Of a DNA stretch of 64,000 nt, positions 1,372 to 35,984 are shown piece by piece. Numbering within the stretch: position 1 is the stretch's first letter; every line of letters starts with the position of its first letter. A model generated the notes under the pieces. It was given only the letters and a program-made list of their open reading frames with translations. It was not told where the DNA came from and did no database searches. The position numbers and the translations under genes were made by a program. Source of the DNA: Candidatus Sungiibacteriota bacterium. Its GTDB lineage: Bacteria > Patescibacteriota > Minisyncoccia > Sungbacterales > HO2-52-23. The stretch is from the NCBI GenBank assembly GCA_016196115.1, contig JACPYI010000002.1, forward strand, positions 35,976-99,975, in the 5' to 3' direction.

Positions 1372-1630
1372 CCACTTTTGCATATCTATACGTGCGGTCA
1401 AACCGCGTCTTCCGCTTGGTCATGAATTTTACCATACCTTCGCGCAACGCAAAGAGAGAATCGTCCTTGCCGTGTCCGACCCCCGCTCCCGCAAGAAACT
1501 TGCCGCCCCGCTGACGGATGAGAATCTGACCGCATTTGACCCGCTCACCGTCAAACTTCTTTACTCCCAGATATTTGGGCTGCGAATCCCTGCCGTATTT
1601 TGTAGATCCCGCTGATTTGGTATGTGCCAT
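1358..1630 (-). CDS. rpmA: 50S ribosomal protein L27
   Basis: 90 aa protein [29 protein letters not shown]...[10 protein letters not shown] matches the L27 N-terminal signature. Confidence 0.9.
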
Positions 1631-1638
1631 ATAAATCT

Positions 1639-2016: not shown

Positions 2017-3205
2017 CAGGCTTTGTCGAGACGCTCAATGCCATGTATTCGCGCACGACGTGACGGGTCTCCATGATCGCATTGCGAATGTCTTCGGGAA
2101 CTTCTTTCAGGATCTGCTTGAGTTTCGTCTCGTCCGCTTTCAGGATCAATTCCCACTTGTTGAGAGGGGAGAGCAGCGCTTTTATTTTTTCAAGATCATA
2201 CGCATAACGCTGGATGAGTTTCTTGGAAACCGTACCGTCTTTGCCGAATACCCGCGTGAGTTTTTCCAGTTCCATGTACGCTTTGATCTGATCCTGCAGT
2301 ATCTTGATCTCCTGTTCAAGCTGTTTTTCCGTTTTTTTCAGCTCGAAATATTTTTCAATCGCCGCGTCGGCTTCGTCAGCCGCGAGCCGCGGATCCGCCT
2401 CTTTTTTATACAAATGCCGCCACGCCGGGCACATGGGCCTATATCCGCACCAGTTGCACAAGGCGCTTGGGATCGGCTCAAAGTTCTTGCCGGCTTTGAG
2501 CCGTTCTTGGATTTCCGCAATGGTTCTTAAGATATGTTGCTTTGTCTTTTCCGTGGTATCCGGATTCGTTACCGTGCTCAACTTCTCCTCGTGCCGCAAA
2601 AAATATAAGCTCAACTTTATGTCTTCGGTCTTCAACTGCGGCCATCGCTTTTGAAGCCCAGCCGAATAAAGGGAAAGCTGCAGATCCTGGTTGAGCGAAT
2701 CCTGCGACGGCATACGCCTGCCGGTTTTATAGTCAATGATCTCATATGTCCCGTCATCCAGCTTGTCTATCCGGTCGATAATGCCTGCCAGCACGTGCGT
2801 CTCGCTTGTTTTCTCATCGGTGAGCGTGAGCTCAAACCGCGATTCAAGATCGACGATGTGAAAATTCCACGGCGCGTTTTTTTCATAAAACCGCTTGAGC
2901 ATTTTTACGCCCTGCTCGAAATATATCTTCTCATCCTCTTCCGCCCACGGTTGTTTCAGCACATCGTGCGCCGCGTCTTTATTGAACGTCTCCAGCGCCG
3001 GCCAATGCGCCTGGAAATACCCCACCACTTCGTCGAGCGTCGGAAACAGGGGATCGCGCTGAAACATGAAGTGCAGCGTTGAATGCACCAAAGTCCCAAA
3101 AATCGCCTCCCGCGACTTGGGAACCCTGATCTTCCCGATCTCCTGAAACTCATACCGCTGCGGGCACTGGAGATAGGTCTGTATTGCCGAATACGACGTG
3201 CGCAT
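1994..3205 (-). CDS. PD-(D/E)XK family nuclease (RecB/Cas4-like, Fe-S Cys cluster)
   Basis: 403 aa. Conserved nuclease core motifs (IIDRID, EIIDYKTG) and a C-terminal CNWCGYRPMC Cys cluster plus an N-terminal Cys, typical of Cas4/AddB-like nucleases. Confidence 0.7.
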   Translation of the reverse strand: MRTSYSAIQTYLQCPQRYEFQEIGKIRVPKSREAIFGTLVHSTLHFMFQRDPLFPTLDEVVGYFQAHWPALETFNKDAAHDVLKQPWAEEDEKIYFEQGVKMLKRFYEKNAPWNFHIVDLESRFELTLTDEKTSETHVLAGIIDRIDKLDDGTYEIIDYKTGRRMPSQDSLNQDLQLSLYSAGLQKRWPQLKTEDIKLSLYFLRHEEKLSTVTNPDTTEKTKQHILRTIAEIQERLKAGKNFEPIPSALCNWCGYRPMCPAWRHLYKKEADPRLAADEADAAIEKYFELKKTEKQLEQEIKILQDQIKAYMELEKLTRVFGKDGTVSKKLIQRYAYDLEKIKALLSPLNKWELILKADETKLKQILKEVPEDIRNAIMETRHVVREYMALSVSTKPVINPDNS

Positions 3206-3259
3206 GGTATAAGAAGTATACTATAGGTCTTTAAAGAAAGAAAGGAGGACGGACGGGTG

Positions 3260-3424
3260 ATGGAAACTGATGATAAACTGCTTGTCTGGTCTGAAGAGGT
3301 TGAGCAAGCCAGGAAAAAAATTATAGCCGAACTGCGGGCTGCCGAAAAAACGATGGATCATCAGGAATATTGGGTTTTGACGAATCTAATACAGCGTTAT
3401 TGTTTGGGAGTAGATCAAGAATAG
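3260..3424 (+). CDS. small hypothetical protein (54 aa), not in the ORF track
   Basis: ATG at 3260 preceded by GGAGG about 11 nt upstream. Translates to METDDKLLVWSEEVEQARKKIIAELRAAEKTMDHQEYWVLTNLIQRYCLGVDQE*. Lies between the nuclease and the recombinase. Confidence 0.3.
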   Translation: METDDKLLVWSEEVEQARKKIIAELRAAEKTMDHQEYWVLTNLIQRYCLGVDQE

Positions 3425-3445
3425 GTGAGTGTAGGTAACTTCGCC

Positions 3446-3474
3446 TTTACTTATTGTAATGAATTGAGTATAAT
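3446..3474 (+). promoter_or_regulatory. sigma70-like promoter (TTTACT-17-TATAAT) upstream of the recombinase gene
   Basis: tttact at 3446-3451 and tataat at 3469-3474 with 17 nt spacing, in an AT-rich spacer. Confidence 0.4.
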
Positions 3475-3510
3475 ATCTCTATGGCTGATTTTTAAAATAA
3501 ATAAAACCCT

Positions 3511-4443
3511 ATGCTTCCTCAACAAGACGATTTTCTGTTAAGTTTAAAGGCGAATAATTATTCGCTTGAAACAATTTATAACTATGAACAGGACTTGATT
3601 ATATTTGATCTGTTTTTACAGAACGATGTAAAAATTCCTTTTGATAAAATTTCAAAGAGAACAATTGAAATGTATAAAGCTTTTCTGGCTTCCCGGGATC
3701 GAAAGACGCCAAAACTAAAAAAAGAAACACGACAATTGTCTGCCGGGTCCGTAAATAGAATGCTTTCAACACTTCGTCGATACCTAAGTTATCTCGGAGA
3801 TATGGACTATAGTATACCTATTGGTCCTGATGCAATCAAACTTGTTAAAATGCCGCACCCGCACCCGCGAGTTGCGGAACTCGATGCCTTGATTGAACTT
3901 ATTGAATCCCCTACCCAGTTTGAAAAAACAAAAGAGCTGAAGCTTCGTAATCGCGCCATGCTGGAAACGCTTTTTTCAACAGGTATGCGGATTTCGGAAC
4001 TCGTATCGCTCAATCGCAACCAGATTGACAAGACCGGAAGAATTTTTATTCGTGGCAAGGGTAAAAAAGAACGATTCGTTTATTTGACTGATCGGGCATA
4101 CGAACATATCAAGTCCTATCTTGCCATTCGGACAGATAAGCATCCGGCCCTCTTTATCCCCTATCGTGGCCGCAACGTAAAGAAAACAACAAGTCGCATC
4201 TCTCCCAACTATGTCCAGATGAAAATGAAGCAGTATCGTGAACATCTTGGTATCAATGTGCCAACTTCACCGCATTCCCTCCGCCACGGATTCGCAACTT
4301 ATCTTGCCGAACAAGGCGCCAATCCTGCCGCGATTCAAATCCTGCTCGGCCACGAATCCCTCCAGACCACGACGCGCTATGTGCATGCTTCGGACACCTA
4401 TGCTGAGAAGACCCACAAGCAATTTCACCCCCTTAAGAAATAA
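3511..4443 (+). CDS. tyrosine site-specific recombinase, XerC/XerD family
   Basis: 310 aa. The C-terminal catalytic region (HSLRHGFATYLAEQGANPAAIQILLGHESLQTTTRYVH) carries the R..HxxR..Y tyrosine recombinase signature. Confidence 0.85.
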   Translation: MLPQQDDFLLSLKANNYSLETIYNYEQDLIIFDLFLQNDVKIPFDKISKRTIEMYKAFLASRDRKTPKLKKETRQLSAGSVNRMLSTLRRYLSYLGDMDYSIPIGPDAIKLVKMPHPHPRVAELDALIELIESPTQFEKTKELKLRNRAMLETLFSTGMRISELVSLNRNQIDKTGRIFIRGKGKKERFVYLTDRAYEHIKSYLAIRTDKHPALFIPYRGRNVKKTTSRISPNYVQMKMKQYREHLGINVPTSPHSLRHGFATYLAEQGANPAAIQILLGHESLQTTTRYVHASDTYAEKTHKQFHPLKK

Positions 4444-4453
4444 ACTTTTCGGT

Positions 4454-5803
4454 CTACAAATAATTCAACGGATTCAGGTAGCCGGAGATGCCGGATACCG
4501 GGTCGCTGCCGATCACCGGGAGGGTGATGTCGCGGCGTTTGCCGCACGTATTGGCGGGGAATGAAGTGACTTGTACGGCTTGGGTGAGGGCTACGGTCAG
4601 GTGGAGGTGCGGGCCGGTGGCGTAGCCGGTGCGGCCGGAAAGAGCCATGCGCTGGCCGGAGTTTACGGTCTGGCCGGTTGAAATGTATATTTCCGAAAGA
4701 TGGCCGTAAATGGTCGAGAGATTATTGTTGTGCCGCACCAGAATCCATTTGCCGTAGGACGCGCGGGGGCACTGGGCATCGGTGTCTCCGGTCGCCACTA
4801 CGACACCGCTGCCTGCGGCAAGCACCGGCGTGCCGACCGACGCACGGAAATCAACCCCGTTATGCCCCTTGCCGCTATATGCTCCGCTTGCGGCAAACGG
4901 GGTGTATCCGAAGTACTGGGTAATGCAATTTTCATCGGCGATTATGTTTGAACCGCAGGATGCCGACACCACATTCGGAAGTGGATATGCGAGAACTCCG
5001 TGCCCGCGCGTAGGCAGCAGGGAGGCATTAAGCGTAACTTTGATCTGACGCTCGTAATCGGCAATTTCTTTTTCGAGCTGGACTTCTTTTTGTTCTTGTT
5101 CTTTGATCAATGATTGATACTTTTTCTCTTCGTTTTTCGTGATCGCGAGCAGATCGCTGCGGTCGTTTTTCGCGACAACCTGTCCTTGCTTCTGCGTGGC
5201 CAGATTACTTTCAAGATTCTGCAATTCGGCCTTCTTCTCCTCACTTTGAGATTTCTCGGCTGCGCGCTCGTTGCGCAGCTGGCGGAGATCGCCGATGGAG
5301 GCGAGCATATTTTTTTCAAGCAGGGCGGCGTCGTTTAGATTTTTAAACAGCTGCGAGAGCGGATCACCTTTGAGCAAGACGTAGACAAGGGGTTCTTGTT
5401 CATGCTGCGCAAACGTGTTCATGACATTCGCAAGGCCGCCTTTTATGTTGTGCATCGACGCGTCTTTTTGGGAGATCTCAATGCCAAGCTGCCGTATCTG
5501 GAGCCGCGCTCGCTCGATCTGCCGTTCGGTCAGGGTGATGCTGCTCGAGAGCGCCTGGATCGAAGTGTCTATGTTGGCGATCTCCTGCTTGAGCGTACTG
5601 CTCCGCTGCCGGTTTTTCTGGAGCACGGCCTGGTATTTCTTTTTCGCTTCCTGCAATTTCTGGATTTCGGCGTTCTTCTGGTCAATCCCCTTCTGCAACT
5701 CATGGATCGTGAGCGCACGAGCGGGAAAAACCGTAACAAAAAAAGCGACCGCAATAATCGCTCCGGAACATAAAAAAATAAATCTGCGCATACCGGAGGT
5801 CAT
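4454..5803 (-). CDS. M23/LytM family peptidase with N-terminal signal/TM segment and long coiled-coil (EnvC-like murein hydrolase activator)
   Basis: 449 aa. Coiled-coil in residues about 30-250. The C-terminal M23 motifs HNGVDF and HLHLTV are present. Confidence 0.85.
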   Translation of the reverse strand: MTSGMRRFIFLCSGAIIAVAFFVTVFPARALTIHELQKGIDQKNAEIQKLQEAKKKYQAVLQKNRQRSSTLKQEIANIDTSIQALSSSITLTERQIERARLQIRQLGIEISQKDASMHNIKGGLANVMNTFAQHEQEPLVYVLLKGDPLSQLFKNLNDAALLEKNMLASIGDLRQLRNERAAEKSQSEEKKAELQNLESNLATQKQGQVVAKNDRSDLLAITKNEEKKYQSLIKEQEQKEVQLEKEIADYERQIKVTLNASLLPTRGHGVLAYPLPNVVSASCGSNIIADENCITQYFGYTPFAASGAYSGKGHNGVDFRASVGTPVLAAGSGVVVATGDTDAQCPRASYGKWILVRHNNNLSTIYGHLSEIYISTGQTVNSGQRMALSGRTGYATGPHLHLTVALTQAVQVTSFPANTCGKRRDITLPVIGSDPVSGISGYLNPLNYL

Positions 5804-7293
5804 ATAAGTTTTTGGGCGGCATTAATGCGATTGCGGGATTCGTCGATGCCAAGTATCGCCATGATTTCGAACGGGCCGGGCGACGCTTTTTTGCCCGAGA
5901 GAGCGACGCGCAAAGGCCAGAGGAGCGGCCCCTTGTCGCGCTCGCCGATCTCGTCGAGAAAAGCTTTTTCAATGGCTTCTTTCGAACTGCTGGAATCAAG
6001 CTTGGCGAGGATGTCCTCGCTGCGCCGGAGCGAATTAAGAATTTCCGCATCGCTCGTGTTTTTCCAGCGAAGTAGTTCTCTCTCGTACTCTGGTTGTCTA
6101 TAGAAATATCCTGTGCGCTCCCCTATATCAGAGAGCTTTTTAAGACGTGGTTGTTCTACGGCAGAGACACTAAGATTATATCGTTCATCGTAATCTGTGT
6201 GTTCGGGTGGGAAAAAACCGCCACTATCATTAAAAAATTGTTTGGTTGTAAGTTTCTTGATATATTCACTATTCATCCAGTCCAATTTGGTAGTATCAAA
6301 AATAGCTCCTGAGTGCTGCATATGCATGAGCGAAAATGCTTCAATTAAATCTTTTTTAGGAAGAATCTCCCTATCATCTCCGGGACTCCATCCTAAAAGC
6401 GCCATAAAATTAAAGAGTGCTTCCGGCAAATATCCCTGACTTCTATACTCATCTACAGATGTCGCGCCATGCCTTTTGGAGAGTTTAGATCGGTCGGGAC
6501 CCAAGATAAGGGGCAAATGGGCATATGTCCAAGGCGCTTGCAAGTCGCCTACACCGTCTGTACTTTTTTGTGTCCACCCCAATGCCCATGCGATGAGCAG
6601 TTGTTTTGGAGTATTGGGAATATGATCCTCACCACGAATAACATGAGTAATTTTCATCTCATAATCATCAATCACCACAGCAAAATTATAAAGTGGAACA
6701 TCCAGTGATTTAGCAATGGAAAAATCTCCCAAAAGACGGGTGAAAAAATGAACTTGGTCACGAATGATATCTTGGAATGTAATTTGCGGATTATGAGGTC
6801 CCGGATCCTGATATGTTGAAACATCAAATCTAATTATAGATTCACGACCGGATACTTTTTTTTGTTCTATTTCCTCGCGCGAGAATGCCTTATGCTCACA
6901 AACATGACGTGCAGGTAATTTATTTTGCATTTGTTCCTTTTTCTCGCTTTCCAGTTCTTCTTTTGTATGAAAACAATAAAATGCTTTACCTGCCTCAAGT
7001 AGTTGACGAATGTATTTCCCATAGGTTGCCGCGCGCTCGCTCTGCCGGTACGGCCCGTACGGCCCGCCCTGCTCCGGTCCCTCGTCCGGGTCAATGCCGA
7101 GCCACCGCAATCCTTTAAAAATATTCTGCTCGTATTTCTTGTCCGAACGCCTCACATCAGTATCCTCTATCCGCAAAATGAAAGTGCCGTTGTAATGCTT
7201 TGCAAATAGATAATTAAAAAGCGCGGCGCGCGCGGTGCCGACATGAAGATTTCCGGTTGGGCTTGGTGCTATTCTTACGCGCGGAGCTGACAT
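5800..7293 (-). CDS. gltX: glutamyl-tRNA synthetase
   Basis: N-terminus RVRIAPSPTGNLHVGTARAALFNYLFA (HIGH motif) and a KLSKR (KMSKS-type) motif. Confidence 0.9.
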   Translation of the reverse strand: MSAPRVRIAPSPTGNLHVGTARAALFNYLFAKHYNGTFILRIEDTDVRRSDKKYEQNIFKGLRWLGIDPDEGPEQGGPYGPYRQSERAATYGKYIRQLLEAGKAFYCFHTKEELESEKKEQMQNKLPARHVCEHKAFSREEIEQKKVSGRESIIRFDVSTYQDPGPHNPQITFQDIIRDQVHFFTRLLGDFSIAKSLDVPLYNFAVVIDDYEMKITHVIRGEDHIPNTPKQLLIAWALGWTQKSTDGVGDLQAPWTYAHLPLILGPDRSKLSKRHGATSVDEYRSQGYLPEALFNFMALLGWSPGDDREILPKKDLIEAFSLMHMQHSGAIFDTTKLDWMNSEYIKKLTTKQFFNDSGGFFPPEHTDYDERYNLSVSAVEQPRLKKLSDIGERTGYFYRQPEYERELLRWKNTSDAEILNSLRRSEDILAKLDSSSSKEAIEKAFLDEIGERDKGPLLWPLRVALSGKKASPGPFEIMAILGIDESRNRINAAQKLI

Positions 7294-7294
7294 A

Positions 7295-8416
7295 TTATTT
7301 CTGATGCAACCCCATCTTCAAAATCTCTCTCGCGATGAGTTCTGCTGCATCGATGCGGGAGAATTTCTGGGCGGCGGCTCGCATTTTCTGTAAGAGTTCT
7401 GGATTGTCCAGGACTTTTTTAATTTCGGCGAACAGGACGTGCGGGGAGAGATTCGGCTCCTCGATCACGATGCAGGCGCCTGCCGCGGCGTACTCGTAGG
7501 CGTTTTTACGCTGGTGATCCTGCGCGGAATTGCGGATCGGGATCAGGATCGAGGGCTTGCCCCACGCGGCGATCTCGAAGAGCGAAGAGCTGCCGCGGGA
7601 GATGATGAGATCGGACACGACGTAGAAATCGCGCAAGCCCGGCTCATCGAGAAACCCGAACGCATGATAGCGCTCTTTGTGGCCAAATTCAAGGATGACG
7701 GATGCTTCCTGCATGACATCCTGAAAATTTTTCTCGCCGGTCTGGTGGATGATCTCGTAGCGTTCGGTCAGCTCTTTAAGGATGCCAAGCGCCGCATCGT
7801 TGAGGCGCGCAGCGCCTTGTGAGCCGCCGATGATGCCGATGACCGGCAGATCCGAGAGTATCGCCAGATTTTCCCGCGCGATATCGCGATTGCCGCCAAG
7901 GATCCGCTTTCTGATGGGAATGCCGACAAGCGCCACTTTTTTCTCGGAGAAAAATGGGGCTGCGCCGGGAAACGCGATCCCGATGCGCTTCGCGAAACGG
8001 CCGGCGAATTTATTCACCCTGCCCGGCACCGCATCGGATTCGTGGATGATCAACGGAATGTGCAGCACCGCAGCGGCAACGACCGCGGGAAACGCGCCGT
8101 ATCCCCCTTTTGAAAATACGACGTCCGGCGTGATAAGGAACACGTTCCAGATCGCCTGAAAAACGCCGCCGATGGTTCTAAAAAAGTCCGTGACATTTTG
8201 GAATGAGGCATACCGCCGCATCTTGCCGCTCATGATCGGGACGATGATGACTTCTTCGGCAGCCAACTGCTCCTGGCCAAAATCTTGCGGCCCCATGTAA
8301 AAAAGCTCAAGATCGAGAATCCGCTCTTCTTCGGCAATCCGTTTTAATTCGCGGATGGTCGCGATGATGGGAAATACGTGTCCTCCGCTTCCGCCGCCGG
8401 TGAATAGAATACGCAT
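7295..8416 (-). CDS. murG: undecaprenyldiphospho-muramoylpentapeptide beta-N-acetylglucosaminyltransferase
   Basis: MRILFTGGGSGGHVFPIIA N-terminal G-loop and C-terminal glycosyltransferase-28 region. Confidence 0.9.
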   Translation of the reverse strand: MRILFTGGGSGGHVFPIIATIRELKRIAEEERILDLELFYMGPQDFGQEQLAAEEVIIVPIMSGKMRRYASFQNVTDFFRTIGGVFQAIWNVFLITPDVVFSKGGYGAFPAVVAAAVLHIPLIIHESDAVPGRVNKFAGRFAKRIGIAFPGAAPFFSEKKVALVGIPIRKRILGGNRDIARENLAILSDLPVIGIIGGSQGAARLNDAALGILKELTERYEIIHQTGEKNFQDVMQEASVILEFGHKERYHAFGFLDEPGLRDFYVVSDLIISRGSSSLFEIAAWGKPSILIPIRNSAQDHQRKNAYEYAAAGACIVIEEPNLSPHVLFAEIKKVLDNPELLQKMRAAAQKFSRIDAAELIAREILKMGLHQK

Positions 8417-23296: not shown

Positions 23297-23394
23297 GTGT
23301 TTTTATGATACGCCTGATCGCGCGGAAATTCAATCACCCGGGAGAGTTGATTTTTCAATAATCTTGAGTTACTATGTCCGTATAAAAAGAACAT

Positions 23395-23478
23395 GCCGCT
23401 GTGATGAAATTGGCAAACATGCGGGACTCAAAATCCCGTGGGGGCAACCCCTTGTCGGTTCAAGTCCGACCAGCGGCA
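23395..23478 (+). tRNA. tRNA-Leu (anticodon CAA), type II with long variable arm
   Basis: Manual cloverleaf: acceptor GCCGCTG/CAGCGGC, 3-bp D stem, anticodon stem CGGGA/TCCCG with loop CTCAAAA, variable arm TGGGGGCAACCCCTT, T arm GTCGG-TTCAAGT-CCGAC, discriminator A. No encoded CCA. Confidence 0.85.
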
Positions 23479-24309
23479 TTATTTTTTCCCCGTCGCGAGC
23501 GCGACGAGATTTTTGAGAAGAACGGCAATAGTGACCGGGCCGACTCCGCCGGGGATGGGGGTGAGGTAGGATGCTTTTTTTGCAACCGATTCGGGGTCCA
23601 TGTCACCGACAAACTTGCCGGCGGATTCGGATGTGCCGGCATCGATGATCACGGCGTTTTCTTTGAGCATATCTCCCTTCACGAAATGCGGTTTGCCGAT
23701 TCCGGAGATCACGATGTCGGCTTTTTGAAGCAGCTGCTCCGGATGAGCCGTGTCTTCGGTGAGCATGTTCAACGACACGCCCTCCTGCAGGAGCCAAAGC
23801 GCTATGGGCCTGCCAACCAGGTTCCCGGCTCCGAGAATCGCGACGTGTTTGTTTTTATATTCGATCTTGTATTCTTCAAGAAGTGCTTTGACGGCTCCCG
23901 CGACCGGAGGCATGATCCTACTTTTGCCGACAATAAAACTCCCGATCGCGCGGCCGGAAAGCACGTCCACGTCTTTTTCGGGCGGGATCGCATTGAGGAT
24001 GTATTGTTTGTTGATGTGAGCCGGCACCGGAAGCTGGATGATAAGACCCGTGTTGTGCGGCTCGTGCACCAGCTTTGCGATGCGTTTGCGCAGTTCATTG
24101 GTTGTGATCGCCGCATCAAACGGATAGACCCGCACATCTATGCCGATCTCCTCCGCGGCTTTCTTCTTCTGCCCCACGAACTTCTCAATCACCGGATCTT
24201 TGCCGACCACGACCACGCCAAGCCGGATTTTCTTTTTCATCGCCGAAATTTCGCCCTTCAGTTCGTCAAAAATCCGCTGTGAAAGTTTTTTCCCGTCGAG
24301 AAGAATCAT
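23479..24309 (-). CDS. folD: bifunctional methylenetetrahydrofolate dehydrogenase/cyclohydrolase
   Basis: MILLDGKKLSQ... and the GxGxxVGRP NAD(P)-binding region (ILGAGNLVGRPIA). Confidence 0.85.
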   Translation of the reverse strand: MILLDGKKLSQRIFDELKGEISAMKKKIRLGVVVVGKDPVIEKFVGQKKKAAEEIGIDVRVYPFDAAITTNELRKRIAKLVHEPHNTGLIIQLPVPAHINKQYILNAIPPEKDVDVLSGRAIGSFIVGKSRIMPPVAGAVKALLEEYKIEYKNKHVAILGAGNLVGRPIALWLLQEGVSLNMLTEDTAHPEQLLQKADIVISGIGKPHFVKGDMLKENAVIIDAGTSESAGKFVGDMDPESVAKKASYLTPIPGGVGPVTIAVLLKNLVALATGKK

Positions 24310-26303: not shown

Positions 26304-26654
26304 TCACTCTATCACGATCATTAGTAACTCATCAAGCTCTTCTTTGCTGATCGCACCCGTTCGTAAAATCATCGGCTTGGCGTCGGTATAATCAATTACT
26401 GTGTGTGAACTGTTCGCCGATGTCTGCGCAACCGGGACATCGGTATGCTGAAGCAGTTGGACAACAAGCGGATCATCGGACATGCATACGCCGATTGTAT
26501 CGGATCCGTCGGTCAGCGCTTTTGGCAAGTTTTCTTTGTGGTGGAAAATCACCGTAACCGAGCCGGGCCAGATCTTTTCGAGAAACCGCCCTTTTGCATC
26601 ACAAATATAGGCGTAACGGCGGGCCATAGCGATGTCACTCACAAAAATATTCAC
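26304..26654 (-). pseudogene. N-terminally truncated YrdC/TsaC (Sua5-family) domain ORF
   Basis: 116 aa aligning only to the C-terminal two-thirds of the YrdC domain (WPGSVTVIF...TSANSS...). The ATP-binding N-terminal roughly 85 aa are absent, and the upstream gene's stop abuts its start. Confidence 0.45.
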
Positions 26655-29518
26655 TTGAGCAAAGCGTTTATGCTCTCCCGGGTTGGCAGATCAACGCTTC
26701 CGAAACCGGTGGTGCTTTGCGTGCCCTCGCATACGATCGCCTGATCGCACTGGAATTTTTTGACTGCGGTTTCGGTTGTGCCGTCGAAAAATCCTGTGGC
26801 GTTGCCGGCCTCAAGATAGTTGCGCGAGACAAGAAACCGCTGCAGCAGCGTTACCTCCGGATGCTTGATGCCGCGGTACAGATCGCGCGTCAAGATTCGG
26901 ACATCGTTTGAAGACAATTGAAGCGGGGCCGGGGAAGAAGGCGTTTTTGACTTTGCGGGCGGAGCTTTTTTGCGATCCGATGACGGTGATTTTACGGTGC
27001 GCGCCGAGGAAGAGGCGTGCGCGATAACCGCAGGCGTGCTTTCATGAATGTCATCCGACGATTTGGCGCCGAAAGCAGGGCTCGGCGGCATCACCAAAAC
27101 CAAGGAGCCGGGCGGAGGCGCCAAGGAAAGGAGCGAGCTCACTCCGAACAGCACGAACGTGGAAAGTTCCCGGGTCACGCAACTTATCTCGTGCAGATCA
27201 TCGTTCGTGCGGCACTGGCTTGTTTCGGTCCAATCTACGCCGGTCCAGCGCCAGATTTTAAGGGAACCCGGAATAATATCGCTCACGTCTTCCGGAAGAT
27301 AGCGCATAGTCAGCGTAACCGGTTTGTCCGAGGCGAAAACGGACGTTGACGGATCCTTGAGCACTACGATCCGGTATGCGTGGCCGGCGATCAGGCGCAA
27401 TTGCGACATGGGAGCAGGAACCGCGCTTGTGATCCCCGCCGGATCAAGTCCGTTGATCTCAACCGCTGCCGCATCGGGGAATCCGGAAGGAAGCGTGATG
27501 CTTGCCGACCGGTCATCGTCGCGGACCAGCGCAAGCGTCCTGTGCGGCAAAGTTGAAAGAATGCCCTCGCTATGCACAGCCGACAGCATTGTGCTAAGAC
27601 AACCGGTCGTGGTGAGCCGGTTCGTCAAGCTCACCGCCTCCCCGTCCGCAGAATTTTTCGAATATGCGCGATAGAAATAACTTGTGCACGGAACCATACT
27701 TTGAAGATTGACGGTATGCGTTCGCTGGCGGCCATCCGTGTCAAACTCCATGGTCGAGAAACGAAGGCCGCCCACGCCGTCGTACGCGACTCGGGTGGTG
27801 CTGTTTTTATCCGTAGCCCACGTAATCATTGCGGATGTATCGCCCACCTGCTGGCTCATAAGCCGGGAAATTACGGGCAACGAGGCATCGCTCACGAACG
27901 CGAGAGAAAAATCAGTTCCGGGTATTTTCACATCTTTATTTCCTGCAAGATAGCCGGTCAAAAGGTGGGAACCGCCGGGAAGATCGGCGAACACTCGAGA
28001 ACCCTTCAGCAGCGCGTCCGCATGGCCCTTACCGTTGTCAAGCTGAAAATGAATCGAGCGGCTGCCGGGTATGTCCGCGTCTCCGGTTACGGCCGAAGAA
28101 ATCGCGAGATTCGATCCGGGTACTGTCCCGTCAAGAAACGGAGCGCTGAGCGAGACGCTGGGCACCGGCGAGAAACGATTGATCTGCAGCTTGAACGAAA
28201 TCCTTTTTTCTTTTTTCGCGCTGATTGCGGTGATCGTGATCGGATGGATGCCGACCGGTGTTGTCCGCAAGGTCGAGATATACAGCGTGGTCAGGCACGG
28301 AAGCACGCAGGAAGCCGGAGAGAATATGCCGTATGCGTCGCTGGGAATTCCTTGGGCGGTAAAAGCAACGGTTTGACCCGCGCCTGACGTGAGCCGGCCG
28401 CCAAATGAAAAACCAGCCGAAGACCCTTGCGTGGCAGAGGACCCGTGGTCATCATCAAGACCCACGAGCTCAAAATCAAATACCGGCGCATTCACCGGGA
28501 GAAGAGAATCTTCCGAGGTCCAGCCGTCATACCCCACGTCGTAGTTGATGTTCCACCATCGCGAATCCGCCACGACTTCCGGACCGCCGATGATGGTTCC
28601 TTTCGTGTCCGGCGCCTGTACCCCGATCAAAGAATTGGACTTCAAAGGAACCTGCCGCACATCGGCCGCCCGCCAATTCCGGATCCTGTCTCCCGATTTG
28701 ATTCTCGGCCCCGACGGCAGCGCGAGCAGCGGAGAGGACGAGGCGATCATCACGTCGGTGCTGCCGGCATCCCGCACGGTAAAGACAAGCGGTGTGACGC
28801 GGCTTCCCTGAAGCATTTCATGTTTGGGTTGATATGCCGCGAGTATGCCGTCAATGCGATACGTGCCCGGGGGAAATTTTTGCGCAAATGATCCGGAGCG
28901 GAGTGCAGCATTGGTCTGACTGCCAATATCAAAGGCGTCTGCCCGCGCACTCCAGGTACCGTTTCGCAATACATCCGCCCACAGGTACGCGTGCGGGGTT
29001 TGGTCAGCAGCGGGCCAGTTACCGTCGATCTGATACGTGAACGCGACGATCTGGTCTTTGAGAATTTCGTGCTGGCGCGGAGCGGTAAAGGAGAGAATTG
29101 GAGGATTTGTCGCACCGCGCGGGATTTCGCGTAGCGAGACAAGCGGAGCCGAAAACACAAACCGCTGCGACGCGATGCGGTTTCCCGCAGCGTCGACCGA
29201 AATAACGCGATAGAAATAGATTAAACCGGGCTTGAGATTGATAATCCTTACCGCATGACTGAAAACTTGAGTCGGGTCAAGATCAGAACGGTTTCCATAG
29301 TTTTCATCAAGTCCGTACTCTACTTGCGAGTTTGCCAACGCATCAGTCATCCATCTTATCACCACGGTCTTTGGCGATGCTGAAGATGTCCCGATATCAT
29401 AGAGAGTGAATACGGGAGCAGATTGTGCATAGGCAAAACCAAACACACCGAGAAGCAAACTAAAGAGAAAAGCAAGAAGCCGGACAAAGAGTTTTTTTCT
29501 TGAACTCATAGACCTCAT
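26651..29518 (-). CDS. large secreted protein with two FN3-like domains and C-terminal peptidoglycan-binding domain
   Basis: Signal peptide. FN3/PAP-N-like motifs (VVIRWMTDALANSQVEYG...LIYFYRV and AMITWATDKNSTTRVAY...SYFYRAY). C-terminal PG_binding_1-like LLQRFLVSRNYL..ATGFFDGTTETAVKKFQ. Confidence 0.65.
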   Translation of the reverse strand: MRSMSSRKKLFVRLLAFLFSLLLGVFGFAYAQSAPVFTLYDIGTSSASPKTVVIRWMTDALANSQVEYGLDENYGNRSDLDPTQVFSHAVRIINLKPGLIYFYRVISVDAAGNRIASQRFVFSAPLVSLREIPRGATNPPILSFTAPRQHEILKDQIVAFTYQIDGNWPAADQTPHAYLWADVLRNGTWSARADAFDIGSQTNAALRSGSFAQKFPPGTYRIDGILAAYQPKHEMLQGSRVTPLVFTVRDAGSTDVMIASSSPLLALPSGPRIKSGDRIRNWRAADVRQVPLKSNSLIGVQAPDTKGTIIGGPEVVADSRWWNINYDVGYDGWTSEDSLLPVNAPVFDFELVGLDDDHGSSATQGSSAGFSFGGRLTSGAGQTVAFTAQGIPSDAYGIFSPASCVLPCLTTLYISTLRTTPVGIHPITITAISAKKEKRISFKLQINRFSPVPSVSLSAPFLDGTVPGSNLAISSAVTGDADIPGSRSIHFQLDNGKGHADALLKGSRVFADLPGGSHLLTGYLAGNKDVKIPGTDFSLAFVSDASLPVISRLMSQQVGDTSAMITWATDKNSTTRVAYDGVGGLRFSTMEFDTDGRQRTHTVNLQSMVPCTSYFYRAYSKNSADGEAVSLTNRLTTTGCLSTMLSAVHSEGILSTLPHRTLALVRDDDRSASITLPSGFPDAAAVEINGLDPAGITSAVPAPMSQLRLIAGHAYRIVVLKDPSTSVFASDKPVTLTMRYLPEDVSDIIPGSLKIWRWTGVDWTETSQCRTNDDLHEISCVTRELSTFVLFGVSSLLSLAPPPGSLVLVMPPSPAFGAKSSDDIHESTPAVIAHASSSARTVKSPSSDRKKAPPAKSKTPSSPAPLQLSSNDVRILTRDLYRGIKHPEVTLLQRFLVSRNYLEAGNATGFFDGTTETAVKKFQCDQAIVCEGTQSTTGFGSVDLPTRESINALLK

Positions 29519-32487
29519 TGTACCACAAAGTTAATGAGCTTGTCAGGAATAAAGATTACTCGAGTCGGTTCACTCGGCAGACGCTGTTTTACGGCATCCA
29601 AATTCCGGGCCAGCCGTGTTGCTTCCTGTTGGGAACTGCCGCGTTTAATTTCTATGACTACGCGTGTTTTACCGTTAATCTGAAAAATAAAATCAACCAT
29701 ATTTTCTTGAATGAATCGAGGATTATATTTCGGCCATGCCTCGCGATGGATAGATCTGAATTTCCGGCTTCCAGCCCCAAGCTCCCGGTTTCCAGATTTC
29801 TGCCATAATTCCTCCGTGATATGGGGGGCAAACGGCGCGAGCAACTTGAGAAAAATTTTTATGTCTTCCGCGCCTACCGCATTCTGTGATGCCTCAACCT
29901 CATTGAGTAAAATCATCAGCGCTGATATTGCCGTGTTGTACTGCAAATTCTCAATATCCTCCGTAACTTTCTTAATTGTTTTGTGCAGTATTATTTGTAA
30001 TGCGTCATCTTGAGGGCGATGCCCGAAGGATCTCTTGAGATTCTTCTCCGCCGGTTGGCGGATCATAATGACTTTGTGTGCAAACTTCCATACGCGCTCC
30101 AAAAATCGAGTTATGCCGCGAATGCCGGTGTCGCGGAAATCCCCGCCCTGTTCGAACGGCGCGAGAAACGCCAGATACATGCGCACCGCGTCGGCTCCGT
30201 ACGCGCGAATATAGTCGTCGGGATTGACCACGTTTCCTTTCGATTTTGACATTTTAGCGCCATCTTTAGTGATGAGTCCATGCGCCCTGAATTTCGGAAA
30301 CGGCTCTTCGAACTTCAGCAGTTTCCAATCGCAGAAAGCCATAGTCAGAAAACGCGAATACATGAGGTGCAATACGGAGTGTTCGGCGCCGCCGATATAA
30401 ATGCTTACCGGCAGCCACTTCTTGGTGATTTCTTGATCCCAAGGGACTTGTCCCGAGCGAGCAGAGCGAGTCGAGGGGTAGCGAAGAAAATACCACGCCG
30501 AATCAAGAAAAGTGTCCGAGACATCGGTCTCCCGACGCGCCATTTTTTTACACTTCGGACAACGGACTTTATAAAATGTCGCAACCGATGCAAGCGGCGA
30601 TTGGTCCGTACCGGTCGGCCGGAAATCTTTTACAAACGGCAGCTTGACCGGCAGATTTTTCTCCGGCACCGCATACCATCCGGGCATCTCCGGCCGCTCC
30701 CCTCTGCCGGTATTCTTGCATACCTCGCAAAAAATCATCGGAATCGGCGGTCCCCAGTACCGCTGCCGCGAAAGCAGCCAATCGCGCAGATGATATTGCG
30801 AAACCCTTTTCCCCCTCACGAATTTCGTGATCTCCCATTTTGCCTCTTCCGAATCCATGCCGGTGAACGAACCGGAATGGGTCAAAATTCCGTCTCCCGT
30901 ATAGGCGCGAGATCTGTCAAGAATCGCAAGCGCCCAGCGATGGCTTTCAGGCGACAAAAATTTTTCCAAGTCCTCTTTTGAAAACCAGAACATATCGTGG
31001 TTCTTCTGCTCGGCTTCGGAGATTGCTTCGCGTGCTCCATCTTGCAGCTCAAAATACAGCGCCCGCGCGTGTCCGAAACGATTCACCTGTTTGGGTACGT
31101 GGTACCATTTGCCATGTATGATGCCAAGATCGGCAATAAGTTTCGGATGCAGGAATCCTGCTTCTTCCCTGATTTCAGCTTTTGCGGCTTCTTCCGCAGT
31201 CTGTCCTTTTTCAATGCCGCCGGTTACCAGGGTCTGCCATGCCACGGTCTTCCACTTGAGTCCGATATACTTTTCTTCGGACCAATGCTTCACGATGGCG
31301 ATGATCGCGTCGCGATGTTCAAACGGCAAATCTTTGCGCACAATACCAGGCTCGGTCGTCTGGATGAATACCGGCTCGATCACCTGCCGGTTCGCGATCT
31401 TGTATTTCTTCGCAAACGCAAAATCGCGCTCGTCATGCGCCGGCACCGCCATGATCGCACCCGTACCGTAGCTGCCCAGCACGTAATCGGCGACAAAAAT
31501 CGAAATCTCTTCGTTGTTTGCCGGATTAATCGCCTTGATTCCTTTCAGTTCGACGCCGGTCTTTTCCTTGCCTGCGGCAATGCGATCCGCTTCTGCTTTT
31601 GTCCGTGCCTTTTTCACATATGCCACGACTTGCACATAGTTGGTAATCTGGGACTTGTGACTCTCTATAAATTCATGTTCAGGAGCAACCACCAAGTATG
31701 TCGCCCCAAACAGCGTATCCGGACGAGTAGTAAAAACTTCAATATCGTCATTCTTCACATCACTTTTCACTTTGAACTTTATCATCGCTCCTTCCGATTT
31801 TCCGATCCAGTTTTTCTGCGCGATTTTTACCCGCTCGGACCAGTCGATCTTCTCAAGATTTTGCAACAGGCGTTCTGTATATTGAGTAATGCGAAAAAAC
31901 CATTGCTCCAATTCTTTTTTAACCACCACGGACCCGCATCGCTCGCATTCGCCTGCGATAACCTGCTCGTCCGCAAGCACGGTCTTGCACGACGGACACC
32001 AGTTGACCGCCTGTTTTTTTCGGTATGCCAAACCCCGCTTAAACATCTGCACAAAGATCCATTGCGTCCATCGGTAATATTCAGCATCGTTCGTCTCCAG
32101 TCGTTCATCCCATGCAAACCCGTTGCCCATCATGGCAAGTTGCCGGTAAAAATTCTTTTCCAGAACACGACCGTAAGTCATTGGGTGCCGTCCGGTTTTC
32201 AGTCCATAATTTTCCGAGTGAATGCCAAACGCATCAAGTCCGATTGGCTCAAATACGTCATACCCCTGCATTCGCTTGAGACGGCCGTAGATATCAACAC
32301 CGGTGAACGTCCTCATGCCCCCAATGTGCAGCCCCTCCGCAGACGTGTACGGGAACATCATGAGATTATAAAACGGCTTTTTGGCGTGCTTAAAATCTGG
32401 TTCGTACGTCTTGTCCGCAAGCCACTTTTTTTGCCATCTGGCCTCAATTTTTTTCGGGTCGTATCGCATAGTTGACAAATTTTTCAA
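29515..32487 (-). CDS. leuS: leucyl-tRNA synthetase carrying an in-frame Nudix-like domain insertion (about aa 372-528)
   Basis: HIGH (EGLHIGG), TTRPDT, AVPAHDERDF and RDWLLSRQRYWG motifs, and the C-terminal domain. Inserted segment contains a Nudix-box-like GGIEKGQTAEEAAKAEIREEAGF. Confidence 0.9.
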   Translation of the reverse strand: MKNLSTMRYDPKKIEARWQKKWLADKTYEPDFKHAKKPFYNLMMFPYTSAEGLHIGGMRTFTGVDIYGRLKRMQGYDVFEPIGLDAFGIHSENYGLKTGRHPMTYGRVLEKNFYRQLAMMGNGFAWDERLETNDAEYYRWTQWIFVQMFKRGLAYRKKQAVNWCPSCKTVLADEQVIAGECERCGSVVVKKELEQWFFRITQYTERLLQNLEKIDWSERVKIAQKNWIGKSEGAMIKFKVKSDVKNDDIEVFTTRPDTLFGATYLVVAPEHEFIESHKSQITNYVQVVAYVKKARTKAEADRIAAGKEKTGVELKGIKAINPANNEEISIFVADYVLGSYGTGAIMAVPAHDERDFAFAKKYKIANRQVIEPVFIQTTEPGIVRKDLPFEHRDAIIAIVKHWSEEKYIGLKWKTVAWQTLVTGGIEKGQTAEEAAKAEIREEAGFLHPKLIADLGIIHGKWYHVPKQVNRFGHARALYFELQDGAREAISEAEQKNHDMFWFSKEDLEKFLSPESHRWALAILDRSRAYTGDGILTHSGSFTGMDSEEAKWEITKFVRGKRVSQYHLRDWLLSRQRYWGPPIPMIFCEVCKNTGRGERPEMPGWYAVPEKNLPVKLPFVKDFRPTGTDQSPLASVATFYKVRCPKCKKMARRETDVSDTFLDSAWYFLRYPSTRSARSGQVPWDQEITKKWLPVSIYIGGAEHSVLHLMYSRFLTMAFCDWKLLKFEEPFPKFRAHGLITKDGAKMSKSKGNVVNPDDYIRAYGADAVRMYLAFLAPFEQGGDFRDTGIRGITRFLERVWKFAHKVIMIRQPAEKNLKRSFGHRPQDDALQIILHKTIKKVTEDIENLQYNTAISALMILLNEVEASQNAVGAEDIKIFLKLLAPFAPHITEELWQKSGNRELGAGSRKFRSIHREAWPKYNPRFIQENMVDFIFQINGKTRVVIEIKRGSSQQEATRLARNLDAVKQRLPSEPTRVIFIPDKLINFVVQ

Positions 32488-34508: not shown

Positions 34509-35984
34509 TCATGAAAGCCGAGGGAAAAGATTCGGCCCCTTTTTTATTACAATTTCCATTTCGCCGACGTTAATCTGCTCGTTGATTTTTCTTGCCGTGT
34601 CGGGCATGAACGGAGCAATCAGACGAGATATTGTGCCAATCCGATGGCATTCATCACCAATGATATGGCGAAGATATGCTTCGTCGGACACCGCCCATGG
34701 TTTCCGATCATTGATCTCTTTATCCCTCTCTCCAATAATTCCCCATATAAATTCCAATGCCTCGTTCAAACGAAATCCCATTACTCTCTTCTCATATGCT
34801 TCATCTATCAATCTAGTCTGCGGCTGCTCTTTTGGATAGACATCTTTTAAGGAAATGGGGCTAATTTTTTCTCCAAGTGTTGCCACGCGCGCAACCAGAT
34901 TTCCCAAACCGTTGGCGAGATCTCCGTTGTAGCGAGTCACGAATTTTTCGTAGCTGAAATCGCCGTCCTCGCCGGACGGGATCTCGCGAAGGAGGTAGTA
35001 GCGCACGGGATCCGTGCCGTATTTTTCGATCATCTCAAACGGGTCAATCGTGTTGCCGATCATTTTCGACATTTTCTGTCCGTCAACGGTTATGTAGCCG
35101 TGGACATAGAGCGCTTTAGGAAGCGGGAGCTTTGCCGAGAGCAGGAAGGCAGGCCAGTACACGGCGTGGAAGCGCGTAATGCCCTTGCCGATCACGTGTA
35201 CATCCGCAGGCCACCATTTTTGGTACTGTTGTTCGTCCCACCCGAAGCCGACGCCGGACTGGTAGATGTTAAGCGCATCAAACCAGACGTACATGCGCTG
35301 AGTGTCGTCTCCGGGCACCGGCACTCCCCAATTTTTTGCGCGCGCGTTCGTGCGCGAGATGCTGATGTCCCGCAACGGCTGTTTGAGAAACGACAAGACC
35401 TCGTTCTTTCGGCTCTTGGGAAGGATGGCGAGCGTGTCGGAAGAAACAAGTTCGATGAGCGCGTCCTGATATTTTGACAACCGGAAAAAATAATTCTCCT
35501 CCGATACGAGTTCGAGTTTTCTTCCCGGATGCTCAAAACATTCTCCATTTTCATTCAACTCGTCCGATGTATAGAACGTCTCGCAGCCGAGACAGTACAG
35601 TCCCTCATACGATTTTTTGTAAATGTCCCCGGCCGCATCGCACAACTCCCACAGCTTCTGGCTCGCGGGATAATGATGAGCGCGATCGCTGCCTTTCTGA
35701 AATCTATCAAATTGCACGTTAAGCCGCTGCGCGAGGTCGGCGAACAGAGCCGCATTGGTATCAATGAACTGCTGTACATCCATGCCGGCCGCCTCCGCCG
35801 CCTGCACGTTTTTCAGAGCATTGTCATCGCTCCCGGAAAGAAGCGCCGTTTCCCTTCCCTGCAAGCGATGATACCTTGCCACCGCGTCCGTCTGCACAAA
35901 TTCAAGAGCATGCCCAAGATGCGGCTTTGCATTTACATATGGAATCGCGGTCGTGATGTAGAATTTTTCTTGTCCGTTCTCCAT
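34509..35984 (-). CDS. metG: methionyl-tRNA synthetase (short form, no C-terminal dimerization/tRNA-binding extension)
   Basis: FYITTAIPYVNAKPHLGHA (HIGH) and KMSKM motifs. Confidence 0.9.
   Translation of the reverse strand: MENGQEKFYITTAIPYVNAKPHLGHALEFVQTDAVARYHRLQGRETALLSGSDDNALKNVQAAEAAGMDVQQFIDTNAALFADLAQRLNVQFDRFQKGSDRAHHYPASQKLWELCDAAGDIYKKSYEGLYCLGCETFYTSDELNENGECFEHPGRKLELVSEENYFFRLSKYQDALIELVSSDTLAILPKSRKNEVLSFLKQPLRDISISRTNARAKNWGVPVPGDDTQRMYVWFDALNIYQSGVGFGWDEQQYQKWWPADVHVIGKGITRFHAVYWPAFLLSAKLPLPKALYVHGYITVDGQKMSKMIGNTIDPFEMIEKYGTDPVRYYLLREIPSGEDGDFSYEKFVTRYNGDLANGLGNLVARVATLGEKISPISLKDVYPKEQPQTRLIDEAYEKRVMGFRLNEALEFIWGIIGERDKEINDRKPWAVSDEAYLRHIIGDECHRIGTISRLIAPFMPDTARKINEQINVGEMEIVIKKGPNLFPRLS

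Follow-up and report, generated by a model that had tools for sequence, protein, structure and literature searches.

As judged from sequence profiles and predicted structure, a complete Nudix domain that folds autonomously is lodged in a surface loop (site B) of the CP1 editing domain of a bacterial leucyl-tRNA synthetase (LeuRS). The gene lies in the window, a 64,000-nucleotide stretch of DNA from the genome of an ultra-small bacterium, Candidatus Sungbacteria. The fusion is lineage-wide in Parcubacteria-type Patescibacteria rather than a singleton, and the Nudix subfamily is almost confined to LeuRS, or its neighbourhood, in these bacteria. We propose, at about even confidence, that the LeuRS-associated module is an active pyrophosphohydrolase with an accessory role, which would most likely act on dinucleoside or nucleoside polyphosphates and clear LeuRS by-products.

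A Nudix domain within the editing domain of LeuRS

The leuS coding sequence (29515-32469, reverse strand; 984 aa from M7 plus stop) matches TIGR00396 leuS_bact over the whole protein at 842.9 bits (cut-off 548.4). Its product is identical to NCBI MBI3442230.1 (Candidatus Sungbacteria, start M7), which bears the name 'class I tRNA ligase family protein'; several Nudix-bearing relatives are likewise given this name or 'hypothetical protein', not LeuRS, by NCBI. The mechanical open reading frame begins at a TTG and spans 990 aa (29515-32487, reverse strand), and residue numbering throughout follows it. The class I motifs HIGG (54-57) and KMSKS (745-749) are present, as are the editing motifs TTRPDT (T253-T258) and AVPAHDERDF (347-356, with AHDERD at 350-355); HIGG, KMSKS, TTRPDT and HD..D are kept in 47-50 of 50 Nudix-bearing relatives. 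The second half of the catalytic core (RDWLLSRQRYWG at 568-579, followed by KMSKS) and the anticodon-binding and C-terminal domains were assigned to 29518-30789 (reverse strand) from motifs, HMM matches and alignment to Thermus thermophilus LeuRS (1h3n), and every domain folds confidently in a full-length AF2 model. The gene reads as a working bacterial-type LeuRS with synthetic and editing sites intact, and the 64-kb window holds no second LeuRS or free Nudix paralog.

The insert at site B is a complete Q-type Nudix domain (residues 373-525; 30913-31371, reverse strand), which the sequence-only reading had drawn at 30904-31374, or residues 372-528. Pfam NUDIX PF00293 matches residues 416-510 with 34.3 bits in the whole protein (E 2.7e-8) and the excised segment with 37.7 bits, both above the gathering cut-off of 21.1. 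The predicted structure and the fold search give an alpha/beta/alpha Nudix fold, so that HMM, model and fold search agree with that reading's main claim, a Nudix fold of about 150 residues inserted in frame between AHD and RDW. Aligned to 1h3n, query residues 8-372 correspond to Tth 3-364 and 526-739 to Tth 374-577, with about 153 residues in place of a loop of about nine (Tth 365-373). The PF13603 editing domain (194 bits) is split in two by the insert. The N-terminal part of CP1 (residues 225-372; 31372-31815, reverse strand) holds PF13603 at 225-373 (profile positions 1-143); the C-terminal part (526-566; 30790-30912, reverse strand) resumes straight after the insert according to PF13603 and the 1h3n alignment, with the second profile segment at residues about 507-556 (positions 136-183). 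The T-rich and AHD motifs of CP1 are kept in 49-50 of 50 Nudix-bearing relatives. The insertion site had been taken for a linker, normally of about 17 aa, but it lies inside the editing domain, and relatives lacking the insert show a spacing of 61-85 aa (mode 69) from AHD..D to RDW.

Conservation of the Nudix box and X-loop

The Nudix box (residues 423-445, GGIEKGQTAEEAAKAEIREEAGF; 31153-31221, reverse strand) has the canonical 23-residue spacing, G423-x5-Q429-x7-A437-E438-I439-x-E441-E442-x-G444-F445, and is not one residue short as first described. It departs from the consensus only by E-to-Q at Q429 and R-to-A at A437, both of which had been read correctly, as had the retention of the REUxEE-type glutamates E438, E441 and E442, the predicted metal-binding residues. 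All 74 fused copies, at 22 to 85% identity to the window insert, keep G423, E438, E442 and G444, and 72 of them have Glu at 441. Nine free-standing paralogs all retain G423, E438, E441, E442 and G444, and among the nearest relatives conservation of the insert (82-85%) equals that of the catalytic core. This pattern points to selection on the catalytic signature.

Position 429 and position 437 change together. Gln at 429 is always paired with a residue other than Arg at 437 (53 sequences with E/D and R, 29 with Q and non-R, none with Q and R), and this strict coupling looks like a compensated pair swap, not decay. The consensus first Glu and the Arg are both present in 53 of the 74 fused members, whereas the window copy has neither; its module is a derived form, here termed Q-type, and internal conservation is tighter among Q-type than among ER-type modules.

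Beyond the box, a strand end and loop (residues 461-470, WYHVPKQVNR; 31078-31107, reverse strand) are equivalent to the Nudix X-loop by conservation and secondary structure. Residues 461 and 462 are aromatic in the family (F/Y/W and F/Y, respectively), and K466, N469 and R470 are near-invariant. The X-loop carries specificity motifs in Nudix enzymes, and ApnA hydrolases have a marker Tyr there, downstream of the box (PMC5389931); Y462 of the window, at +17 past the box, is a candidate for this position.

Distribution and further modules in relatives

LeuRS accounts for 109 of the 149 cluster representatives of the Nudix subfamily, and every named source is patescibacterial. The locus search used a Q-type-only alignment, so the 76 species-level loci it yielded are biased towards Q-type modules. 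The Q-type module occupies site B in 52 of these loci, site A in about eight and a tandem arrangement with an ER-type module in one; it stands as a separate gene immediately upstream of leuS in three and lies elsewhere in four, so that 72 of 76 loci lie in or beside leuS. The top profile matches scanned with Pfam were all LeuRS or free Nudix, with no other aminoacyl-tRNA synthetase among them. When the insert was the sole query, the word index limited the matches to nine free-standing Nudix proteins, with LeuRS absent; full-length and exhaustive profile searches recovered the LeuRS fusions. The insert is spread across Parcubacteria-type Patescibacteria. That the fusion was undescribed held for the literature, in that open-access papers and bioRxiv yielded no description of a LeuRS-Nudix or other synthetase-Nudix fusion, nor of a LeuRS with several added hydrolases, but Nudix-bearing LeuRS proteins already stand in public databases under generic names.

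Relatives use other sites and carry other enzymes. Site A, the first CP1 beta-hairpin loop (residues 241-248, KSDVKNDD; 31744-31767, reverse strand), is empty in the window; in relatives it receives alpha/beta-hydrolase and/or Nudix modules, whose insertion points correspond to window residues from about 236 to about 242. A third insertion place lies before the anticodon-binding domain. The alpha/beta 'Ser_hydrolase' module is found at site B in two relatives (P0024 and P0043) and at site A in others, one LeuRS (L025) has a HAD_2 module and another (P0164) a Ham1/ITPase module. Family members carry one to three Nudix copies, with up to four additional hydrolase modules per LeuRS, and catalytic signatures are retained (GHSxG in the alpha/beta-hydrolase modules, DFDGV in HAD).

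One relative, P0016, has no Nudix although its backbone and those of the Nudix-bearing P0011 and P0012 are equally close to the window protein, and insertion states are interspersed across the LeuRS backbone tree (neighbour-joining, midpoint rooting); the insert is therefore dispensable for LeuRS. In gapped local alignments of P0016 with the Nudix domains, the observed score was reached by 9 of 2000 shuffled sequences for P0012, but by 134 for the window and 148 for P0011 (each of 2000), which is no more than suggestive of a decayed Nudix remnant.

Proposed function, alternatives and known systems

On the proposed reading, the domain would be a Mg2+/Mn2+-dependent pyrophosphohydrolase, with E438, E441 and E442 on the Nudix helix binding metal and activating water, and with the basic loop (K466, N469, R470) and the aromatic pair 461/462 gripping a polyphosphate-linked nucleotide. 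Candidate substrates are ApnA/NpnN-type molecules, which aminoacyl-tRNA synthetases make from aminoacyl-adenylate and ATP. Tethering to LeuRS, or co-expression with it, would clear or recycle these by-products in a minimal-genome organism, and the conservation of the association across four topologies is what functional linkage predicts. Because the module may sit at site A, at site B or in a free gene, it needs no set placement relative to the active sites of LeuRS, which argues against direct channelling. Ap4A-type substrates are compatible, by analogy, with the nearest structural neighbours, among them the T. thermophilus Ndx1 Ap6A hydrolase (1vc8), Mycobacterium tuberculosis Rv2985 (9cxx), the Aquifex Ap4A hydrolase (3i7u) and DIPP/DDP1. 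Structural neighbours are, however, weak predictors of Nudix substrates, and the closest one, 2azw from Enterococcus faecalis, is uncharacterised. Two further counterpoints are that Q429 and A437 could lower or change the activity of the window copy, and that the steadiest NCBIfam matches, though sub-threshold, are to RppH, not to ApnA hydrolases.

The two Q-type substitutions could also mean that the enzyme is dead, its fold being kept as a stabilising, tRNA-contacting or ligand-sensing module. E429Q and R437A in the window, a Gln with non-Arg in all 29 Q-type sequences and the loss of the Nudix without loss of LeuRS fit such a history, and Nudix-fold domains without an enzymatic role exist (PMC5389931). 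We consider this improbable: the Q-type proteins, nine free-standing ones included, keep the box glutamates and glycines; a free-standing copy could hardly be expected to survive if the domain were dead; and the pair-swap pattern and the tighter conservation of the Q-type count against it as well. The inactive structural insertion that the sequence-only reading had listed as an option is thus disfavoured by the conservation pattern. An RppH-like module would trim the 5' end of tRNALeu or of some other LeuRS-bound RNA by removing pyrophosphate or an Np4 cap; CP1, approaching the acceptor end, might bring this 5' end near. RppH models are matched by 40 of 42 members (YtkD by 24 of 42), RppH and decapping Nudix effectors are among the fold matches, and Ap4A made by synthetases is known to cap RNA (PMC9437257); at 17-21 bits against cut-offs of 116-259 (NF001934-NF001938), the insert is not a member of the RppH families, and we find this activity distinctly improbable. 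Pre-transfer editing, in which the Nudix site would hydrolyse misactivated aminoacyl-adenylates such as norvalyl-AMP from the synthetic site, draws its sole support from the location within the editing domain. An aminoacyl-AMP, whose single phosphate forms part of a mixed anhydride, falls outside the nucleoside-diphosphate-X type of substrate, and its hydrolysis by a Nudix enzyme is chemically unlikely. With the canonical post-transfer editing site intact and the module also placed at site A or in a separate protein, pre-transfer editing seems hardly credible.

A less specific account makes the module a passenger: a house-cleaning hydrolase of the usual kind, serving nucleotide-pool sanitation or salvage and mechanistically unconnected with leucylation. 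The two CP1 surface loops would then be permissive landing pads, and fusion to an essential, constitutively expressed gene would merely secure co-expression in a minimal genome. The unrelated hydrolases (alpha/beta, HAD_2, Ham1/ITPase) at the same or other sites of this LeuRS family fit the passenger account equally well. The catalytic signatures kept by the alpha/beta-hydrolase and HAD modules, the scattered insertion states with a close relative lacking the insert, and the four free Q-type genes away from leuS also speak for it. It sits less easily with a subfamily almost restricted to LeuRS surroundings, with top profile matches that include no other synthetase and with an association in four topologies, as expected of functional linkage; we regard it as possible but doubtful. 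More far-reaching, and in our view unlikely, is the idea that parcubacterial LeuRS is a modular multi-hydrolase scaffold in which the Q-type Nudix, be it inserted at one of the two CP1 loops or encoded just upstream, is a dedicated partner that destroys a LeuRS-made nucleotide (Ap4A/Ap3A-type alarmones or Np4 caps). If true, alarmone control and nucleotide salvage would both be tied directly to tRNA charging in bacteria that are thought to rely on scavenged nucleotides, and the other modules (ER-type Nudix, alpha/beta-hydrolase, HAD, Ham1) would be further steps of an on-enzyme clean-up line.

Extra synthetase domains are usually discussed as a eukaryotic feature. Here they occur in bacteria whose genomes are among the smallest known, where one essential synthetase bears as many as four added hydrolase modules. 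If the Nudix substrate is indeed a by-product of LeuRS, the module would form the first hard-wired connection of a synthetase to dinucleoside-polyphosphate degradation and a tractable entry to the nucleotide economy of uncultivated Patescibacteria. Should it be a mere passenger, the two CP1 loops would be natural, evolution-validated permissive insertion sites of use in protein engineering. There is also a consequence for annotation, as generic NCBI names hide the LeuRS identity of the window protein and several relatives.

Compared with bacterial LeuRS of known structure (T. thermophilus 1h3n/2byt, Escherichia coli 4aq7/4arc), the window protein is homologous and collinear over its full length (E 2.7e-190 to 1h3n) and shares the core, CP1 with its T-rich and HD motifs, and the anticodon-binding and C-terminal domains; it differs in bearing a 153-residue enzyme domain where T. 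thermophilus has its short loop, and its relatives add a second CP1 loop and the site before the anticodon-binding domain. The Nudix polyphosphate hydrolases among the fold neighbours (1vc8, 9cxx, 3i7u, DIPP/DDP1, 2azw) are just 17-22% identical to the insert, in which Q429 and A437 stand in place of the consensus Glu and Arg and which is embedded in another enzyme. RppH/NudH shares the fold and gives the steadiest family match at sequence level; the insert reaches no NCBIfam family cut-off, and for the MutT 8-oxo-dGTPase model (TIGR00586) it scores 11.5 bits against 97.9. NadM-Nudix, to which weak NCBIfam matches were seen here, sets a precedent for joining a Nudix domain to adenylate chemistry: a HIGH-superfamily adenylyl-transferring enzyme and a Nudix able to act on its adenylylated product share one polypeptide (PMC7824862). 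NadM-Nudix is, however, an end-to-end fusion of a small nucleotidyltransferase with an ADP-ribose/NAD-type Nudix, whereas the domain described here is nested in the editing domain of a synthetase. NCBIfam NF040702 ('isoleucine--tRNA ligase, N-acetyltransferase domain-containing') is likewise a class Ia synthetase with an added enzyme domain. Domain accretion in eukaryotic aminoacyl-tRNA synthetases is the same general phenomenon of grafted functional domains. In both cases the host enzyme and the added fold are different, and patescibacterial LeuRS is set apart by two nested CP1 sites and as many as four hydrolase modules, in reduced genomes.

Fold and position of the Nudix insert

The leuS open reading frame (ORF; window 29515..32487, minus strand) encodes a 990-aa bacterial-type LeuRS, which scored 842.9 bits against TIGR00396 (cut-off 548.4), matched T. 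thermophilus (Tth) LeuRS 1h3n with an E value of 2.7e-190 and carries HIGG (residues 54-57), the T-rich editing-site motif TTRPDT (253-258), AVPAHDERDF (347-356) and KMSKS (745-749). The NCBI version starts at M7 (984 aa; MBI3442230.1, from a Candidatus Sungbacteria MAG) and is named 'class I tRNA ligase family protein'.

The sequence-only reading had placed a Nudix-like domain in frame within this protein at 30904-31374 (residues 372-528), and the domain was borne out: Pfam NUDIX PF00293 matched residues 416-510 at 34.3 bits (gathering cut-off 21.1; 37.7 bits for the excised insert segment), while the LeuRS editing-domain profile PF13603 was interrupted, with residues 225-373 covering profile positions 1-143 and residues ~507-556 covering 136-183. 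From the alignment to Tth LeuRS (query 8-372 to Tth 3-364; query 526-739 to Tth 374-577), residues 373-525 (window 30913-31371) take the place of a CP1 loop of about nine residues. The figure of some 150 additional residues was therefore correct, but the site is not in a linker, as had been proposed; it falls within CP1, the editing domain. Nor is about 17 aa the normal spacing: AHD..D-to-RDW measured 61-85 aa (mode 69) in 33 insert-less relatives and 205-217 aa in Nudix-bearing ones. The Nudix box (G423-x5-Q429-x7-A437-E438-I439-x-E441-E442-x-G444-F445), which had been read as one residue short, has the canonical 23-residue spacing; the E-to-Q and R-to-A substitutions noted in it are real (Q429 and A437).

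An AF2 model of residues 372-530 (42-sequence alignment; pLDDT 94.2, pTM 0.88) showed the strand and helix order of a Nudix fold. Foldseek against the PDB returned 2azw as the top match (E 6.7e-11, TM 0.78/0.84), followed by Aquifex Ap4A hydrolase, Tth Ndx1 Ap6A hydrolase, NudB, NudI, MutT1/Rv2985, RppH and CT771. In the full-length model (60-sequence alignment; mean pLDDT 86.7, pTM 0.73), the Nudix segment ranked among the regions of highest confidence (block means 87-97) and CP1 was well formed on either side, so the insert is predicted to fold autonomously and leave its host undisturbed. In a LeuRS that is otherwise canonical, a surface loop of CP1 hosts an entire Nudix fold, its predicted metal-binding triad intact.

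By sequence, the best PDB match of the insert was the PAM-interacting domain of SpCas9 (residues ~1108-1217; aligned stretch '...D..IA..K.W...KY.G..W.TVA...LV....EKG'), which outscored every PDB Nudix, with E values of 3e-5 for engineered D1135L/S1136W-type variants and 0.004 for the wild type. Fold searches with the insert model did not list Cas9, so this resemblance is probably due to chance.

A single RNA gene was detected in the 64 kb: a tRNA-Leu of 86 nt with anticodon CAA and a long variable arm (window 23394-23479, plus strand), ~6 kb from leuS. Directly 3' of leuS lies a 955-aa ORF (26651-29518, minus strand) with weak PG_binding_1 and purple-acid-phosphatase-N matches. Its first ATG overlaps the leuS stop by 4 nt, public gene calls put the start slightly later, and its GC content (0.57-0.59) is markedly above that of leuS (0.43-0.54). 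About 2.5 kb upstream of leuS, beyond TatD and a 169-aa ORF of unassigned function, is a 491-aa short, MetRS-like class I synthetase (Pfam tRNA-synt_1g / tRNA-synt_1; ~34956-35984, minus strand).

Module-bearing LeuRS in Patescibacteria

The Nudix-LeuRS fusion is lineage-wide and no singleton. A full-length search retrieved LeuRS from many Patescibacteria MAGs (Sung-, Lipton- and Jorgensen-bacteria, Tyrphobacter, Paceibacterota and Parcubacteria), with a Nudix domain (~940-1045 aa), Nudix plus alpha/beta-hydrolase (~1130-1212 aa), alpha/beta-hydrolase only (~1000-1034 aa) or no extra domain (~812-893 aa). A profile built from the Nudix alignment, searched exhaustively, gave 170 cluster representatives at E<=1e-30; among the best 149, 109 were LeuRS or LeuRS fragments (one Nudix copy in 99, two in 8, three in 2), 33 were free proteins (<=260 aa) and 7 were other proteins. 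Taken alone, a word-indexed search with the insert would wrongly suggest a unique fusion, as it returned nine free proteins only and missed all LeuRS, even the 100%-identical P0010.

The loop hosting the window's insert (site B) is not the only one occupied in relatives; site A, the first beta-hairpin loop of CP1 (window residues 241-248), is empty in the window LeuRS. An alpha/beta 'Ser_hydrolase' (PF06821) replaces the Nudix at site B in P0024 (1001 aa; residues 390-549) and P0043 (1016 aa; residues 398-557). P0013, P0026 and L026 (1186-1207 aa) combine a site A hydrolase (P0013 residues 283-441) with a site B Nudix, and L056 (complete genome CP175956.1; 1346 aa, ORF 1706-5743) has two alpha/beta hydrolases at site A and a Nudix at site B. 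Three Nudix copies, the maximum, occur with HAD_2 (residues 1011-1165, C-terminal half) in L025 (1528 aa, ORF 1170-5753) and with Ser_hydrolase in L041 (1558 aa, ORF 2675-7348), the largest proteins reaching ~1,560 aa. P0164 (1330 aa) adds to its site B Nudix a Ham1/ITPase in its C-terminal half (residues 984-1167), before the anticodon-binding domain. Catalytic signatures are kept in the extra modules (GHSxG in alpha/beta hydrolases, DFDGV in the HAD_2 phosphatase).

Conservation and association with leuS

Across 74 fused copies (22 to 85% identity to the window insert), G423, E438, E442 and G444 were invariant, position 441 was E in 72, and R392, W412, W417, K466, N469, R470, L481, E493, H497 and W501 were near-invariant. 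The family consensus is the canonical Nudix box (E429, R437), with E in 51, Q in 20 and D in 3 fused copies at position 429, and R in 53, A in 9 and other residues in the rest at 437. These positions are strictly coupled (E/D+R in 53 sequences, Q+non-R in 29, E+non-R in 1, Q+R in 0), suggesting a compensated swap between residues that would be in contact. Q429 with non-R437 defines a derived clade (Q-type; motif VHgKFyHvPK..NRfaH...lYFEL), whose conservation is tighter than that of the ancestral ER-type (E/D429, R437). Mean identity to the window over 49 relatives was 41% in the Nudix region, 46% in the anticodon-binding and C-terminal region and 72-74% in the catalytic core; in the nearest relatives the Nudix region was 82-85% identical, equal to the core. 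This conservation pattern argues for an active enzyme. Editing and synthetic motifs were intact in 47-50 of 50 Nudix-bearing LeuRS, so the module is no substitute for a lost editing site.

Scanning GTDB species genomes for the Q-type motif yielded 76 loci, 75 of them titled Patescibacteria or unclassified bacterium (Sung-, Taylor-, Azam-, Kaiser-, Adler-, Nomura-, Moran- and Campbell-bacteria among others) and one, L024, labelled Nanoarchaeota. The Q-type module stood alone at site B in 52 loci, at site A in ~8 (several with an ER-type at site B) and in tandem with an ER-type at site B in 1; as a free gene, it lay directly upstream of leuS in 3 and lacked any leuS within 4 kb in 4. The nine free-standing homologues from the initial search are 163-186 aa long and align over the full length of the insert at up to 60% identity; all were Q-type and nested within the fused Q-type clade. 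The leuS genes at L001/L022 and L028 bear an ER-type module at site B and are directly preceded by a free Q-type gene; the ER-type module is 24% identical to the window insert and 30-33% to its free neighbour, low values that mark the two types as distinct coexisting paralogs. The adjoining genes span 4001-4444 and 4544-7420 at L001/L022, and L028 and L079 are arranged likewise. Further genes at L001 are a second free Nudix after nusB and, a few kb upstream, FemAB-family, Mur-ligase and free alpha/beta-hydrolase genes.

In a backbone tree with insert columns masked, insertion states were interspersed. P0016, an 841-aa relative without the Nudix, is 82% identical to the window protein N-terminally and 74% C-terminally, as close as the Nudix-bearing P0011 and P0012. 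Judged from such comparisons, the module is dispensable for its host LeuRS. The 30-residue site B loop of P0016 (PAAARSVYPRNAVDLAMGAKAELHIVADCW) aligns patchily with the Nudix (RNAV / AKAELH / IVAD) and may be a decayed deletion remnant, although the statistics are weak (score reached by 9/2000 shuffles against P0012 and 134/2000 against the window).

Candidate function and known systems

LeuRS itself produces Ap4A at a modest rate. We propose that the insert would be an active pyrophosphohydrolase, with dinucleoside or nucleoside polyphosphates as its likeliest substrates, because ApnA/polyphosphate-type hydrolases are its closest structures after the uncharacterised 2azw, because aromatic and basic residues are conserved in the specificity-loop region (PMC5389931), and because synthetases are documented to make Ap4A when ATP attacks the aminoacyl-adenylate (PMC9437257). 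A functional link to LeuRS is argued for chiefly by the pattern of fusion and neighbourhood, the Nudix module being conserved across the lineage and associated with leuS; that the module's geometry varies speaks against a rigid composite active site.

The main rival to such a link is a passenger model, supported by the diverse modules in related LeuRS and their frequent gain and loss: unrelated house-cleaning hydrolases would use CP1 loops as permissive landing pads. Hydrolysis of aa-AMP by the insert is less likely, as is a dead structural domain, given a conservation pattern that favours an active enzyme. RppH-like action on an RNA 5' end is also less likely.

The window protein belongs to bacterial LeuRS and to the Nudix superfamily. 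It falls below the cut-off of every curated Nudix subfamily (17-21 bits vs 116-259 for RppH; 11.5 vs 97.9 for MutT). The fusion proteins are already public under generic names, with Pfam matches precomputed. Literature searches on LeuRS or aaRS with Nudix, including CPR/Patescibacteria and the editing domain, turned up no description of the architecture, none of the papers listed by a looser search on CP1 insertion in parcubacterial LeuRS deals with it, and the 2017 review of the Nudix clan makes no mention of tRNA (PMC5389931). The fusion joins the domain accretion known from aaRSs to a Nudix hydrolase, and of broader interest than the single insert is that minimal-genome bacteria use LeuRS to carry several hydrolases. 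The closest precedent in concept is NadM-Nudix, in which an adenylyltransferase of the HIGH superfamily is joined to a Nudix domain (PMC7824862); there, however, the fusion is end-to-end and involves another Nudix subfamily, whereas the window's Nudix is nested in CP1.
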